From positions 496,001-560,000 of the forward strand of contig JAVKOQ020000002.1 in the NCBI GenBank assembly GCA_031835245.2: a DNA stretch of 64,000 bases. Direction: 5' to 3'. The stretch's first letter is position 1, and each line of letters opens with the position of its first letter. Made by a program: the position numbers and the translations under genes. Below are positions 32,617 through 41,760 of the stretch, piece by piece. The stretch is from Balamuthia mandrillaris. Lineage: Eukaryota. Below the pieces are notes generated by a model. It worked only from the letters and a program-made list of their open reading frames with translations. It made no database searches and was not told the DNA's origin.

Positions 32617-35247
32617 TCAACAAACACAACAAGTGACCAACTTATTGCCACGTACGGTGGCTGTGGTTGTTGTTGATGGTGCCGCCACCACTCCTCCAGT
32701 GATGTTGCCATTGCTGCTTCTTCCTCTTCTATTGCTTGTTGAGTATGACGACGATAAACGAGTACTTCTTCTTCTTTGTGTGAGAGATTCGCTCTTTCTT
32801 CTTGTTGCGTTTGTTTTTTTTGTAGCTGCTGTTGTTCCTTTTTTCCGCTGCGATGACTTGTTCCTCTGTGAAGCCTGCTCATCCTCTTCGGGTTCTTCTT
32901 CAACTTTGACGGAGGCTCTTTGTTGGCTGCAGTTGTTCGCTTTGTTCTTCTGTTTCTTCTTGGCAGGTTTTCGTTGTTGTTTTCCAACTGAATGCATGTT
33001 TTCCTTTTGTTTCGTTGCGTCTACTTCTCTGGTTCTCTTCTTGGAGCATAGTGGAGACACGCTGCTTTCTTCTTCCCCCTCCTCCTCCTCCTCCTGCTTT
33101 ATGGCAGAAAAGGGAAGAAGCGTCTCTACGTTCTTCACCTGTTCTCTTTCTTGTCTTGTTTCCTTCTCTTCCTCTTTCTTGTCCACCTTCCCTGTCACGT
33201 CTTCTTCACCTTTGTCGTGCGATTTCTGTTTATCCTCTTTCTCTTCTTCCATTGTCGAGGTAGAAGGAGACGTAGAAGGAGATTTAGAGGGACAGGAAGA
33301 GGGAGAGGAAGAAGCTTGATCAAAAGCAAGGATAAGGCTCTGGTCGAGGATGTTGTCGGTGGGCTCCCAAGAGTTGTACTTGGAAGAGTATCCCTCCCAC
33401 TTGACGAGGTACTCCACCACCAGCTGCCGCCGTCTTACGCGATGTCGTCTAATGCGCCTCGGTCCAAACTGCACCCAGCGCTCTCTCTTGGCCAACAGCT
33501 TTTCCACATAGTAGATATTGCCGTCTTTTTCCACTGGAGGCGGGTTCTGTGTGCCTTCTTCTTTCTCTTCCTCATCTTCTTTATTCTTCCCGTTTTCTTC
33601 GTTAACATTTTCTTTATCGTTACCTTCAGCTTTATCTCCAGCTTCATCTTCAGCTTCATCTTCATCTTTTTCTGTTTCCGTTCCTGTTTCATTTCCTCTT
33701 GCTTCTTGCTGTGCTGTCGTTGTCTCGTTGTCTTTGATAAGATTGAGATTGTCTTCGAAAGGCAAAGAAGATGGAGAAGAAGGAGAGGAGGAGCAACAAG
33801 GTGACTCGGTTCCTGGTGATGGCTCTTTATTCGCTACTTCGTTTCCATTTTCTTCTTTTTCCTCTTTTGGCTCGTTCACATTCTCTATCTCGCTCTCGCT
33901 CTCTCTTTTGTTTTCGTTAAAAGAATGTTGGGGATGATCGATGTTGAGCATTGCTTTTTCTTTCAACGCTCTCTCTATGGTAGCGAGAAGACGAGTTGGA
34001 AGAGAGGTGGCAAAGGAAGGCTGATAGTCGGACCCGCTGAAATTTTCCGAGATCTCTGCGTTCTCTATTGACCTTCTCTTTCTCTTCTGTTGCTTTTTGG
34101 TTGTGGGTTCGGTTGATGTGACAGCAGAGCTTTCAACAGGCACGTTTTTCATCCGGCGTTTTCTCTTGGCTATCCTTCTTGCGTTGTTGTTTGTCGTTGT
34201 TGTGAGTTGCTGGTTTAGCTTTTGCTGCTCTATCTGTCCTGATTGATGCAGAATCTGCTGTTCAAGTGCTGAAGAAAGGAGAGAAGGAGAAACGGGCACA
34301 CAAGGTAAAGAAGGAGATGACGAGGAAGATGAAGACGAAGAGGACGAAGAGGGAGAAGGCTTTCTCTTCAGTCTTTCCTCTGCATGAGCCTTATCCACAA
34401 GATACATGTAAAACGGAATACATTTGTCCGTCCATGAGACGCCATCGCGAGGACCTGTGAACTCGGCCCAGGGATAGTGAAACATATGGCAAGGGTCGTC
34501 CTTGAAGCGATCACTCCAAGGCCTAAACCTGGGCCTAAAGTTCCGCAGAGAAACGATGCGAGTTCCATCGCGTAGGAGTTGATGGCAACGACGGAGGGTG
34601 GCCTCCTCCAAGGCAGGAGGGAAGCAGTAGTTGTTGATGAGGATGACGGTGGCTTGTCCAAACTCAAAGGAAGGAGAGGTAAGATCGCCGCGGATGAAGC
34701 CGGTCTGTCCGGTCCTAAGTCCTCGTTTCCGTAACTTTGTGTTGAGCAAAGAAGTTGAGAAACAGAAGAACAAGAAGAAGAAGTGAAAGAAGAAGAAGAA
34801 GAAGAAGAAGAAGAAGAAGAACAAGAAGAAGAAGAACAAGAAGAACAAGAACAAGAAGAAGAACAAGAAGCGAGGAAGAGAAAATGAAGAAAAGCTAACC
34901 TCCGAAGACCAATGATCGTTCAGCTCCACAGCAATGTCATGCAGGTCTTCGCGAACCTCCACGCCAAAAGCCTTGCACCCCGTCTGCGCCGCCACCTGGT
35001 TGACCACGTTGCCCACACCCGAGCCTAGGTCAAAAAACACATCGTCCCGGCCTATCCCCGCACAATGGATGATCTCGTGAACAAAAGCAGGCAGCACCTC
35101 GCCGTAGACCTCACGGGAGCCGGTGGCGTAGCGGCGGAGCACTTTCGGCTTGTAAGCTCCCGAGCATAACTTGACGTGTTCCCACAACTGGGCACATTGT
35201 TGCCAAGTGGGAAAGTTGGTGCTCTCGCTTGATTCTTCTTCCTCCAT
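32617..35247 (-). CDS. DOT1: DOT1-family histone H3K79 methyltransferase fused to a chromodomain (intron 34735-34899)
   Basis: [56 protein letters not shown] is DOT1. [29 protein letters not shown] is a chromodomain. Confidence 0.9.
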
Positions 35248-35580
35248 CTGTATATTTTTGTTTTGTTCCCCTCCCTCCTCCCACCTCCCACAGCAGTGCT
35301 CCTTCTTCTTCTCCGTCGATCTGCTTGTCTCGCTGCCCACTACTTTTTTTCTTTGTTGTCTTCGTCTTTTTTGTCGACGTTCAATTTTTGCGGACTGAAT
35401 TCCCTCTTTAGGGCATTTCAAGATTACATGAGGGGTCATATAACGTGAAAAGGAGAATTACATATTTTCTACCAAATTTCTATCAATTTTTCTGAAATGA
35501 AGGAATGCGAAGAATTTGTCGACACAATTTGAAATCGGGGCAAAAAAACCGAAAGAGAAGAGAGAAGGGGAGAAGAGGGA

Positions 35581-36142
35581 ATGGCGGATGAGCTTCTTCA
35601 CTCCAAGCCATCCGCTGCGGCTAACAACAACGAGGAGGAGGGGGAGGAGGAGGAGGGCTCTAAGCAAACCGCAGAAAGCAACGAAGAGGGAGATTCTTCT
35701 GGTGGAGGAGACTCCTCTCCCAGATCCACGAGCAGCAGCAGCGGTGAGGATGCGTCGGAAGGGGAGGAGGTAATGGATGAGGGGGAGGCGGATGAAGGAG
35801 AGGAAGAGGGCGAGGAAGAGGGTTCAGGGGATGAAGAAGAAGAGGGGGAGGAGGAGGAGGAAGACGAAGCTGAAGGAGGAGCAGAAGAGGAGGAAGAAGA
35901 ACCAGAGGAGGAAGGAGAAGAAGAAGACGAAGAAGATGGATCAGAGGAGTCAAGCGAAGGTGAAGATGTGGACGAGGAGGAGGAAGAAGAAGAACACGAC
36001 CAAAAGGAAGAGGCAGCGAGCAAGGCTGAACGTGAACAATGGGTTCGTTTTCCCTTTTTCATCCTTTTCTTTTCTTTTCTTTTCTTTTCTTTTCTTTTCT
36101 TTTCTTTTCTTTTCTTTTCTTTTCTTTTCTTTTCTTTTCTTT

Positions 36143-36174
<32 letters not shown>

Positions 36175-39100
36175 TTCTCTCTCTCCGTGTTTTTGTTGCG
36201 TTGTGTTTTTATGTGTTTGTTACGAATTGCCTTTTTGAACGAAAAAACAAACTGTTTTTCATTCTTACTTTATTTCTTTCTCTTTCCATTATTCTCACCC
36301 ATTGGTAGAGACTGTCTCTCATGCGAAAATATGGAGTGGAAGACGAACAAGTGGCCCTTCATCGCAGCCAAAAGTATGTTCAATACTTGTTGAAGAAAGA
36401 GAGCGCTGAAGACGGAGACGAAGATGGCCAACAAGCTCCTCCAACAGCAACCGTAAAAGAAATGCTCGACCAACGACAGAAAACTAGGGCTGCCATCCGT
36501 CGTAAACATGTTTCCACTTCTTCCTCTCCTCCTTCAACACCAAATGAGGAAAAGGAGAAAGAAGTGGAAGAGAGAGAGAAAGAGAATGAATTGTTATGCC
36601 TACAACAAAGCCCAAAAGAAGAAAGAGAAAAGCGAAAAAGAGAAATGAGGGACAAGAGGAAAGCGTTCCGAGCGCCTTATACGAGAGGCAGCACTAGACT
36701 CTTTCAACAACTACAGGAGGGAGTGGCACGTATGCATCAAAACATGGAAGAGGAAGAAAAGGAGAAATCGAAAGGAAAAAGAGGAAAAGGGAAGGAAGAT
36801 GCAGAGAAACAACAATTAGTTTGGTTGGAACATATGACGATAAGTGACATGTTCGACTTAAGAAAGAAGGTGAAGGAGGAAGAGGCTGCGAAACAAAACA
36901 ATAAAGAAGATGAACAGAAAGAAGAAAAGGAAGGAAAAGCAACAGCAACAGAACAAAAGACCAAGAAGAAGAAGGAAGAAGAAGATGAACAAGAAAGAGA
37001 ACTAGCCGGAGAAGAAAGAAGAAGCAGCGTTATGATCAAAGAAACAACATTGGCAGAACTTTTGGAGCAAAGAAGAAAGGAAAAGGCAAAGCGAGAAAGA
37101 AGAGAGAAGGAAAGAGCCAAAGCTGTTAGCAGCGGTACTGTTGCCAGAAACAAGAAGAAGCAGCAGCAGAAAAAGAAAAAGAAAAGACACACGGCCAGCA
37201 AAGAGCAGAAGAAAACGACGACGACGACTACAACTACAAAGACAAACAGGACAGATATTTCAGCTTCGAGTGATGCAACAACAAAGCCGTTGAAAAAGCT
37301 GGCAACAACAACAACAAAGAAGACAAAGGAAGAGCAAGATGAAATCAAGAAAGAAACAGCAACAACAAAAACTATGACAGAAGCGGAAAGAGAACGGCAA
37401 AGAAGAAGAAGAAAGAAGAAGCGAGCAAAGAAAAGAACAAACGCAACTGTGTTAGCAGGAGAAGAATTGATAATGGAAGGCAATGGAAAGACACTCGCCC
37501 GTAAGCCACAAGTTAAATCGGTGGCTGCTGTCGCTTCCGATGAAGGCAAGAAAGAAGTAAGAAAAAGAGACAGCAACAAAGCTAACAACACCGATAAGAA
37601 AGAAGTTATAGAAAAAGACAAGGAGAAAGCGAAACATCAACACAATGCCAACAAACAAACAGCTAATTCGATGCCAGAAATGAAGTCCGCAGTAATGAAG
37701 TCCTCAACTTCAACATCTTCAAAGCAACGACCTGGGTTGGCAAAATCTCATCCAGGAATGGACCTCTCAAGCAAAGAAAGGGAGAAATCAGAGAAGGGAA
37801 AAAAGGAAAAAGAAAAGGAGGAAAAAAGACGTATTCAAATGCAAGCCCAAGAAAGTTTGGAACAGTTGAGAAAGTGGAGACAGGAGGACCAAAAGACGAA
37901 GAAACGCAACAACGAAGCTAAACAAGATGAGTTCGTGATCAGTGGGCCTGCTTCCTTTCAACACATTCGACATTTCGATCTTAGCATGGATAAGGGCAAG
38001 AAGATACTTCTCGACGTTTCTTGTAAGTATTTTTACAGCTTACTTGTTCTTTTGTTGCTAAGCATGTCCAAAAAACAAGTGATTGAAGCACGAGGATTGC
38101 CTCCGTGTGATGAAGATCATAAGATGTACTGTTCTGTTGCGCTACTGCGATCTGTACAGAGTTTTAAGTCTCGAACCATCAAAAGCTACGAGACCAATCC
38201 AGTTCTCGAACATGATTTGACCTTGTACTGTCTTCCTTCTCATCTCTTTCTGCTGTCTCCCTTCTGTTCTTTTCCTGTTCTGGTGTGCCACTTATCATTT
38301 CCGTCTTAGCACATATTACGACAAGATACTTTTAAATCCACGACTGATGGTGAGAGTTTATTGTGTAAAGCCGAGTCGTTTTGGCAAACGGGTTCGTTCA
38401 GAAATAGGAAGAGTGACGGTGGACCTTAGCCTTCTCGAAGATAAAATAGTTAATGACCTTTGGCTGGACCTAGAAAAACCCTTAAAGAAGAAAGGGAGGT
38501 GGATTGGTGTTTGCCTTCCTGATGAGGAATGCGGATTTGTCCATCTTCGCATTCAGAAGCACTGGTTGCGCAAGGTTTGTTCCTCCTTTCCTATTTCTCC
38601 GCTTCTCTCGTTCTCTCGTTCTATCTTCCTCTCTCTCTCTCTCTCTCTCTATTTGAAGTTTTCATAAAGAATTCCAATTTTAAAAACTCTATAGAAAGGA
38701 GTGTTATCTTATTATGGATGGCCTTTACAAGCCATTCCTTTACGAGTGGAAGCTGGTGATATCGTTCTCTTCAGCGACAACGACCTCGCCAAACAAGCCG
38801 TTCAATTCGCATGTCAAAGCCAGGTTCATTCTCATCTTTTTTTCCTCTCCCCTCCTCCTCCACATGTCTCCCTCTAAATGACTGGTGTTCTTATATAAAC
38901 GTTAGTGGGACCATATGGCCATGGTCATTCGCTTACGCGATAGAAAAGGGGTGTTTCTCTTTGAAGCAACGATGGCAGGAGTGGATGTTTATAAGCTGGA
39001 CCAACGCTTGGATTTGTACAGAGAAACGGCAAAACTCGGCATCCGTCGCCTTCAGTTGGAGCGTACTTCTTCAATGTTAGAAGTCATGTATGATTTTGTG

Positions 39101-39525
39101 GAAGAAGTCGTGGGCAAGCCCTATAACTCCAATTTTGTACAGGTAAGTCTTTTTCAAAAGCGCATCCGAGAGACAGAAAAGAGAGAGGAAAGAGAAAAGA
39201 AGAGAAGAGCAGAGCAGGAGAGAAGGAGAAGAATACGTTTACGTAACACATACCCTCCAACAAAAAACAAACATAACAGCTGGTTAAAGCAAAGTTTGGT
39301 GGTAACTCCAACGACGCAGATGTATCCAAGTTCTTTTGCAGCCAACTGGTGGCAGCGTGCTATCAACGAATGGGGCTTCTTTCGACGGACATCGCCGCCA
39401 CCAACTTCCTTCCAGCCCACTTTGAACCTTGCAAACGGTTGAAGCTGTTGAAAGGCAGATTAGGCGAAGTGATGGTCATACCCAAGAAAAGTACTGCTCA
39501 GCTGGGTGAAATGCTCCTCTACTAA
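35581..39525 (+). CDS. Acidic/charged N-terminus, CRIB, C2 and permuted papain-like (YiiX/YaeF, C92-type) amidase (7 exons)
   Basis: Introns 36043-36308, 38023-38079, 38225-38309, 38575-38694, 38824-38905 and 39143-39279. Motifs: ISGPASFQHIRH; IEARGLP..YC.V..KSRTI..TNP..IGRVTVDL..DLWLDL..G.VHLRI; GDIVLF..WDHMAMV..EAT..GV..GKPY..FFCSQLVAACY. Confidence 0.85.
36066..36185. repeat. (TTTTC)n/(CT)n intronic microsatellite
   Basis: Seen directly. Confidence 0.9.
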
Positions 39526-39652
39526 AACAAGCCCCAGAACCAAAGAATTTAGACGAAACGAGAGAAAGAATGTATACAACTTTGTTCAAACAAAGGAAGC
39601 GTTGTTAACACATTTACGGTGGTTGGTTTTCTATGCCTCAACGAAAGGGTAC

Positions 39653-40309
39653 TCAACACAAGATGCATCTTTCTTTGACTTTACCTCCGATTTTTTTGGT
39701 TGCTCTTACCGCCAGGTTCTTGTTCTTCTTGACGTCGTTGCTTCCACAGCAACGACGCCGATGAACGCGGATCTCTCGAACCAGCTCAAAGAACGCCTCG
39801 TGCACGTTGACTCGAGTTTTGGCGCTGGTCTCCAGGAAGCGCGCTCCCCAACTGGCGGCCAGGTCCTTCCCTTCTCCGGTGCTCACCTCCCTGCTGTTTG
39901 CCGCCAAGTCGCTCTTGTTTCCAACGAGAGTAATCGGCACATCCTCCACCTCGTTTGCGCGGAGGATAGCTTGGTGAAGGGTTGGAAGGGCCTCAAAGCT
40001 GGCTCTGCTGGTCACGTCGTAGACAATAAGGAAGCCCTCTCCAGCTCGCATGTATTGGTCCCTCATGACAGCATATTCCTCCTGTCCGGCAGTGTCGAGT
40101 ATCTCCAAGAAACTGGCCTGGGCGTCGATGATGATTTTTTGAGTGTAAAAGTCTTCTATGGTTGGGTCATAGTCGGTGGTCCACTGGCCATTCACCATTT
40201 GGATCGTTAAACAGGACTTGCCGACCCCGCCTGGTCCCATGACTACAATGGAGTAGGTGGAGTCCGCCGACCAAGTGGAACAAAGAGACGACCGCATCTG
40301 CTTCGACAT
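39653..40309 (-). CDS. ras: Canonical Ras-family GTPase, intronless
   Basis: GPGGVGKS, YDPTIED, DTAGQEEY, NKSD, ETSAK, C-terminal CILC. Confidence 0.95.
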   Translation of the reverse strand: MSKQMRSSLCSTWSADSTYSIVVMGPGGVGKSCLTIQMVNGQWTTDYDPTIEDFYTQKIIIDAQASFLEILDTAGQEEYAVMRDQYMRAGEGFLIVYDVTSRASFEALPTLHQAILRANEVEDVPITLVGNKSDLAANSREVSTGEGKDLAASWGARFLETSAKTRVNVHEAFFELVREIRVHRRRCCGSNDVKKNKNLAVRATKKIGGKVKERCILC

Positions 40310-40570
40310 GAGTGGAGATACTCCGCAGTTCGTCGGGTGGGCGCTTGTTGGCTTGTTGTCGCGTATGTGCTATAATCAGAAGAAAAGAAAAAAAAATAGT
40401 AACGTATTCATCCGTTGGAAGAAAAATTCCAGATTGACTCGAGGTTTCCCTCCGCTAGTTGCCGGAAGGGACACCAAACAGTTTGATTGGTCCATTTTTT
40501 CTGCGGAGTTTAACCCCAAAAAAAAAGTTCATGACGTCAGCCTGGTTTCCCGCCCTTTTTTTTTCCCAAA

Positions 40571-41760
40571 CTAAAAGGGCAAATGGGCAGCGCTGCCGGC
40601 AGCAGCAGTTCTTGTTCTGACTAACAAGTCGCTGCTTCCGCCGCCGCGAGGCAAAGGCATCGGCGCGGAGGCTGCCTTAGAGGGGGAGGGCACGGTAAAC
40701 AGCTCCTCTGAGCGGTGGTCGCCCCTGGGTTGCAGCTGTTGCCGTCGCCGCCTGCTCCACCGCGAAATAGCAACGGATACAAGGACTCCAGCCAGCGCTC
40801 CTCCTTTTTTTTTTTGTTGGGAGGTCAAGAAGGAGACAAAAAAAAAAGAACCTCACTCAAACAAAAAAAAAAGAACCTAACCTAAGTGAGCGATTCGATT
40901 CACATGGATGGTGGTAGGTTGGCCTTCTTCGTCATCCTGGTCGTGGTCATGGGCGACAGCAGGGAAAGCTTCCTGCACTTCGGTCGCCAGCCGGCTCAGC
41001 ACAAACTGGCCGAGAATGAAGAGCTCGATCAGGTTTCGGCACAGAAGCACCACCGCTTCGCTCACCTTTGCCGCCTTCCTTGTCTTCGGCGTCGTCGTGG
41101 TCCAACTAGAAACCCCGCGAAACAGCAGCAACAGCCGTTCCATAAGGCTGATCACGAACAAACCGAATATGCTGCCGCTCGCTCCTACACTCACTGTCTC
41201 ATACACCCTCCCTTTGAAAACAAAAAATCAATCCAGATCCCGATGAGATGAGATGAGAACACCCAAATCAAAAAAAAAAGGTAAAAGATGAAACCAGATT
41301 CGTTGACAAAGCCCTCCGAAGAGAGCAACAAAGAGGCCAAGTTGGCAAAGAGGCCGCACAACACGTAGCGAAACACAAAGCCAACGGCGCCGTCGCCGCA
41401 GCTCTCCTCCACCAAACGACCAAAGATGTAGATAAAGAAGAGGTTGGGGGAGAGGTGCTGGTAGGAGTGGTGACAAAAGATGGAGGTGAGGGGCTGCCAC
41501 CACGACGTCCTTTTGTGGTAGAGGTGCAGGGAGCGCATGAACGGCACTTGCAGGACGTTGTCGAGAAGGAAACACACCAAAGTCAAAATGATGATGAGAA
41601 ACACTCCATCAAAACTTTTAAATACAATCACTCTCTTTTCTTCTGGAGAGGAAGATGAAGAAGCAGCAAAAGGGGAAAGAATAAAGGGGGAGCGACCATC
41701 ACCACCACCGCTTCCTTCTTCTTTGTTTGAAACAGGAGGATAGTAGTTCCGCGGCAGCAT
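40571..41760 (-). CDS. Rhomboid intramembrane serine protease, RBL11/cyanobacterial-like (introns 41212-41294, 40804-40881)
   Basis: WWQPLTSIFCH..HLSPNLFFIYIFGRLVEE; catalytic GASG; LGQFV; NRIAHL|GGALAG. Confidence 0.9.

Follow-up and report, generated by a model that had tools for sequence, protein, structure and literature searches.

A gene of seven exons was located on the forward strand of the window, the 64-kb stretch of Balamuthia mandrillaris DNA that was analysed, with its start codon at 35581 and its stop at 39525. Every intron is GT-AG and splicing leaves a single open frame, the 1065-aa product of which matches NCBI B. mandrillaris protein P0002 letter for letter. A gene model with an additional intron at 38350 was rejected, as the open frame was lost. 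The features of the gene are as follows.

35581..39525, + strand: whole gene, 7 exons, 1065 aa (P0002)
35581-36042, 36309-38022, 38080-38224, 38310-38574, 38695-38823, 38906-39142, 39280-39525, + strand: exons
35581..37937, + strand: N-terminal part of about 697 aa, low complexity, includes intron 1
37938..37976, + strand: CRIB-like motif, aa 698-710, ISGPASFQHIRHF, 6/8 core residues
38001..38562, + strand: C2 domain, about aa 719-858, exons 2-4
38746..39480, + strand: YaeF/YiiX (Peptidase_C92) permuted papain-like domain, about aa 880-1051, exons 5-7
38912..38914, + strand: catalytic His908 (WDH), aligned with His49 of BcPPNE, H in 116/121 alignment rows
38963..38965, + strand: third triad residue Glu925 (after PMC3142127), E in 112/121 rows
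39122..39124, + strand: signature Tyr978 (after PMC3142127), Y in 108/121 rows
39337..39339, + strand: catalytic Cys1004 (FFCS), aligned with the catalytic Cys of BcPPNE, C in 117/121 rows

Upstream and divergent (32617-35457, − strand) lies a gene for a DOT1 histone methyltransferase (E 4e-36) with a chromo domain (E 2e-13), a single stop-to-stop frame of 946 aa. On the other side, an intronless gene for a Ras-family GTPase ending in CILC (39653-40369, − strand) is placed tail to tail, 127 bases from the stop of the gene. This GTPase was considered as a partner for the CRIB-like motif and rejected on its effector loop, YDPTIEDF, which we take to be of the Ras type; no Rho effector-loop pattern was found within the 64-kb window. 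Further along, at 40877-41608 (− strand), exons with H-x-x-x-N and GASG motifs were seen, presumably those of a rhomboid-family membrane protease.

With exon 6 as the query, two NCBI B. mandrillaris proteins were retrieved, P0002 and P0001 (1078 aa), the latter an allele of the gene without differences from P0002 from aa 500 onward. Both records are annotated with PF05708 and PF00168, yet they are titled BOP1 and CENP-B; these names are wrong, as is that of cGMP-dependent kinase given to a paralogue. The N-terminal part, in which a Pfam scan at E≤10 found no domain, is acidic at first and then Lys/Glu-rich with basic runs, and it changes fast between alleles. Counted on 40 listed variant sites, with 11 further sites outside the counts, codon differences before aa 690 were 9 synonymous against 18 replacement, and from aa 690 on 9 synonymous against 1 replacement. 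Three copies of a pattern T-[VIL]-x-[ED]-[ML]-[LF]-[DE]-x-R were observed in this disordered tail (36450-37090, + strand; aa 202, 331 and 401 of P0002). They are kept in the allele, and none of 5000 shuffles held one, the pattern having been drawn from the copies themselves.

The gene is expressed as a spliced message. A contig of 1517 letters from run X1, the RNA status of which is the tool's guess, covers 37561-39551 with introns 2-6 precisely removed. All five joints were seen again, each in one or two raw RNA reads of runs X5 or X6, which carry the same species label. For intron 1, the evidence consists of loose ends at 36308, seen in X1, X5 and X6, which agree with the end of exon 1. Coverage in run X2 was restricted to exons 6-7, and long contigs of X3 and X4 read through the introns, no joints being listed for them. 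The RNA joints confirm that the CRIB-like motif, the C2 domain and the enzyme domain are carried by one message. Since they cross introns 2-6, the possibility raised in the earlier note, that the C-terminal exons belong to a separate transcript, was ruled out.

The C-terminal domain was assigned to the YaeF/YiiX-like permuted NlpC/P60 enzymes (PPNE) by its profile score, its residue order and its fold. Pfam Peptidase_C92 (PF05708) matched aa 880-1016 with 45.8 bits against a cut-off of 27, and the scan at E≤10 found only this domain and C2 in the 1065-aa protein. The His (38912) precedes the Cys (39337), which bears out the permuted papain domain first noticed behind the C2 domain. His908, Glu925, Tyr978 and Cys1004, equivalent to the Cys/His/Glu/Tyr catalytic set named by Xu et al. 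(PMC3142127), are all present, and 92 of the 121 aligned rows hold the full set. The nearest PDB sequences were BcPPNE (3kw0) and YiiX (2if6). A structure model, proposed earlier as a check on the spliced protein, folded confidently for aa 690-1065 when built with the 121-row alignment (pLDDT 87.2, pTM 0.87); the fold made without an alignment reached a pLDDT of 32.4. Structural alignment with VIA-align gave a Z of 15.3 with YiiX (rmsd 2.6, 149 residues aligned) and of 14.6 with BcPPNE (rmsd 3.2, 165 residues), and Foldseek concurred. A search of the ESM Atlas gave no usable match.

With YiiX and BcPPNE the domain thus shares its fold, the His-before-Cys order, the GD motif and the catalytic set, at about 20% identity. 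Unlike these enzymes it is eukaryotic and intron-bearing, and fused to a C2 domain and a charged tail of 700 aa that includes the CRIB-like motif. Within the broader family proposed in the earlier note, which extended to LRAT-like enzymes and isopeptidases, the domain is of the YiiX/BcPPNE type. LRAT and PPPDE gave no Pfam match and were absent among the structure matches listed, though these were filled by C2 chains. LRAT/HRASLS, LnsA and Tox-Act1 have the permuted NlpC/P60 fold and acyl-thioester chemistry in common with the domain and are a likely working model. They are separate families, and none of them was among the sequence or structure matches listed. No measured activity for close YaeF/YiiX members was found in the literature examined.

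The C2 domain was recognized by profile (PF00168, aa 722-828, 34.5 bits against a cut-off of 22) and by its eight-stranded fold, which aligned with C2A of E-Syt (7atp) with a Z of 15.8 (rmsd 2.1, 126 residues). Most of the Ca2+-binding aspartates, of which a Ca2+-binding C2 domain has five in loops 1 and 3, are absent. In a comparison by eye through the family profile, loop 3 reads YCVKPSRFGKRVRSEIG against FDEDPDKDDFLG in C2A of E-Syt2, and the SDPY aspartate is missing. Since the third loop (aa 794-803) is basic in place of the aspartates of E-Syt2 C2A, we infer that the domain would bind anionic lipid independently of Ca2+, with this loop as the contact.

A full HMMER search returned 1546 relatives at E≤0.001. 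The best 150 of these were listed and 78 of the longer ones scanned for domains. C2 was present in 28 of the 78 (23 above the cut-off), PH in 16 (13 above the cut-off), PX in eight and SH3 in seven; RasGEF and LIM were each found in a single protein, as were a weak RA-like and a weak F-box match. PBD was found in none of the 78. Twenty were looked up for their source, and Stenamoeba, Phalansterium, Clydonella, Pellita and Balamuthia are among the names obtained. Identity to protist C2-C92 proteins, among the best 150 of the 1546, reached 44% over both domains. Three metagenome loci (L001, L071 and L072) encode C2 and the enzyme in exons, their sequences starting inside C2. A quick tree was made of 116 rows, five of the 121 being omitted for gaps. 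In a careful tree, restricted to 33 selected rows, the protein fell into one group (support 96/95) with two Balamuthia paralogues, P0012 and P0018, and with the fragment P0003.

The C2-C92 core is conserved among these protist proteins and common to the Balamuthia protein; around it they add PH, PX, SH3, RasGEF, LIM or nothing. Five of them (P0056, P0014, P0047, P0066 and P0023) carry a RasGEF, a weak RA-like domain, twin SH3 domains, or PH and PX. By their predicted domains, these fusions repeatedly connect the family with membrane signalling and with signalling by small GTPases. The Balamuthia protein is an expressed member, with intact catalytic residues, of a widespread, domain-shuffling protist family.

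The combination of C2 with a permuted papain domain is not new and is common in protists. It has been in print since 2011 (PMC3142127), where Xu et al. describe many permuted enzymes fused to lipoprotein signals, PH or C2, and a C92 protein of Plasmodium is mentioned elsewhere, with no function given in the part of the text available (10.1101/2021.01.22.427784). The earlier view that the whole architecture is unfamiliar thus holds for the addition of the CRIB, the only new part, and fails for C2-C92. No CRIB-C2-C92 protein was found in the literature searched, which was chiefly non-subscription and covered as main texts without supplements. The Acanthamoeba list in the available part of PMC8847673 holds no fusion of a CRIB to a cysteine enzyme, and Table S1 of that paper may list more amoebozoan CRIB architectures.

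The CRIB core consensus is I-S-x-P-x(2-4)-F-x-H-x-x-H-V-G (PMC8847673). ISGPASFQHIRHF has six of the eight core residues, the core V being replaced by F and the core G by D, and so stays within the one or two changes with which, according to the same source, cores are still able to bind. The bare motif is said there to be insufficient for high affinity. The rest of the GTPase-binding domain of the PAK/WASP type is missing, because only eight residues separate the motif from the first C2 strand. Pfam PBD (PF00786) gave no match at E≤10 with the whole protein and three short stretches, in a program whose filters drop weak matches, and a PDB sequence search with the CRIB stretch gave nothing relevant. 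Of the full CRIB that had been reported immediately before C2, what stands is a motif in that position with a 6/8 core and no PBD match. The protein resembles the CRIB/PBD effectors (PAK, WASP and the amoebozoan ones) in these core residues and in the predicted disorder of the segment, and differs from PAK and WASP in lacking the PBD extension. The segment aa 691-711, which includes the motif, was predicted as coil with a model confidence below 50, few alignment rows being available there.

At least five of the seven scored CRIB positions were matched by the two alleles of the gene and by none of the 153 other proteins in the set of 155. P0012 and P0018, the closest relatives, are among the latter and are free of the motif although their N-termini are long. 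In 40 aligned homologues, of which 33 have at least 40 residues before the C2 column, no CRIB was found there. Since it is missing from all 153 other proteins, the motif is without conservation support. No true orthologue was found that extends upstream of C2, the metagenome loci L001, L071 and L072 beginning inside that domain. Six 5/7 matches to the CRIB core occurred in 80 metagenome loci, none of them in L001, L002, L071 or L072. Among the sequences that could be seen, at least, the motif thus appears to have been acquired by this gene. Directly before it, at about 37860-37910 (+ strand, aa 669-683 of P0002), a helix-like motif (ESL..LR[KE]WR.EQ-like) was observed, which recurs twice in the N-terminus of P0012 and otherwise, among the fetched proteins, only in their alleles. 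The two proteins may share it as a regulatory element.

The reading that we favour, while giving it a little less than an even chance, is that of a C2 domain and a YiiX-type acyl-lipid enzyme working at membranes, to which a lineage-specific CRIB-like motif would add recruitment through active Rac. C2 and enzyme would pack as one rigid unit and present the active site to the membrane. Cys1004 would take up the acyl group of a fatty-acyl ester or amide as a thioester, the candidate donors being phospholipids, N-acyl lipids and lipidated proteins, and the group would then be hydrolysed or passed on. A lipid substrate is proposed because a fatty acid sits in the hydrophobic S1 pocket of YiiX (PMC3142127), because LnsA is a permuted acyltransferase (PMC13559823, PMC7387801) and Tox-Act1 a permuted phospholipase (PMC12994826), and because the homologues carry the lipid-binding domains C2, PH and PX. 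The segments equivalent to the YiiX S1 pocket are hydrophobic in the Balamuthia protein too, as judged from sequence. Rac-GTP would contact the motif weakly and act jointly with lipid binding, the two setting where the enzyme acts; recruitment is favoured over the switching on of catalysis. The gains of SH3, RasGEF and LIM in the family are counted in favour of the CRIB reading. The motif is predicted to bind Rac, and a Rac-guided lipid enzyme is a candidate function. A more specific version, in which a papain-fold acyl-hydrolase or acyltransferase would be a direct effector of Rac-GTP, with CRIB and a Ca2+-independent C2 as a coincidence detector, we regard as possible but rather doubtful. 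Such a detector of Rac plus lipid would place the enzyme, and perhaps switch it on, at the membranes of pseudopods or phagocytic cups.

The main alternative is an ordinary C2-YiiX lipid enzyme in which the CRIB-like stretch, a chance or vestigial product of a fast-evolving disordered tail, binds no GTPase. The missing PBD match, the want of a second case in the 153 other proteins and the motif-free paralogues speak for it, as does the expectation of about 1.3 matches of at least 6/7 per 10 million residues, or about one in a proteome-sized text. On the other hand, the rare F, H and H are among the six residues matched, and these same six are expected about 0.1 times per 10 million residues; the motif lies in predicted coil adjoining a membrane-binding domain; and both alleles retain it, the lone variant within it being silent, an observation of little power. 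In 2000 shuffles each, a score of at least 6/7 came up once for aa 690-1065 and never for the whole protein. Given this low chance rate and the 9-14 CRIB proteins present in each amoebozoan genome (PMC8847673), chance would be the less likely origin of the motif, and on balance we consider this alternative somewhat unlikely.

A membrane-bound peptidase or isopeptidase acting on ubiquitin-like or other proteins, instead of a lipid enzyme, would be in line with the link of PPPDE permuted papain folds to ubiquitin signalling, with the lysine bound in S1' of BcPPNE (PMC3142127) and with the weak F-box match in one homologue. The nearest structures are nevertheless YiiX and BcPPNE, and according to PMC3142127 the S1 pocket of YiiX, being hydrophobic, does not suit a peptide. 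The partner domains are moreover mainly lipid-binding, and a peptidase is considered improbable. Least probable is a true allosteric switch, in which the CRIB or the charged tail would inhibit the C2-enzyme unit until Rac-GTP bound: in PAK and WASP, autoinhibition is as a rule released through the CRIB, and binding could be transmitted since the motif abuts C2 and C2 and enzyme form a single confident unit, but an inhibitory-switch segment is absent after the motif, aa 691-711 are unordered in the model (though at a place with few alignment rows), and the paralogues work without the motif.

If the motif works as recruitment through Rac would require, a cysteine enzyme that remodels acyl lipids would be tied directly to Rho-family signalling, and this in an amoeba which feeds by phagocytosis and is the cause of a fatal encephalitis. 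The motif would also give a first GTPase handle on a family of protist enzymes that is unstudied and whose other members bear PH, PX, SH3 and RasGEF. The wider result may matter more, namely a large protist family in which YiiX-type enzymes are joined to membrane and signalling modules. No measured substrate for these fusion enzymes was found in the literature examined, and the Balamuthia member, expressed and catalytically intact by its residues, makes a workable entry point to the family.

Intronless Rac-like genes were also observed on viral contigs (L081:808-1383, L082:257-841, L084:460-1020 and L085:475-1020). Their switch regions are intact and they have CaaX-like ends; the gene beside one of them is presumably ribonucleotide-reductase-like.
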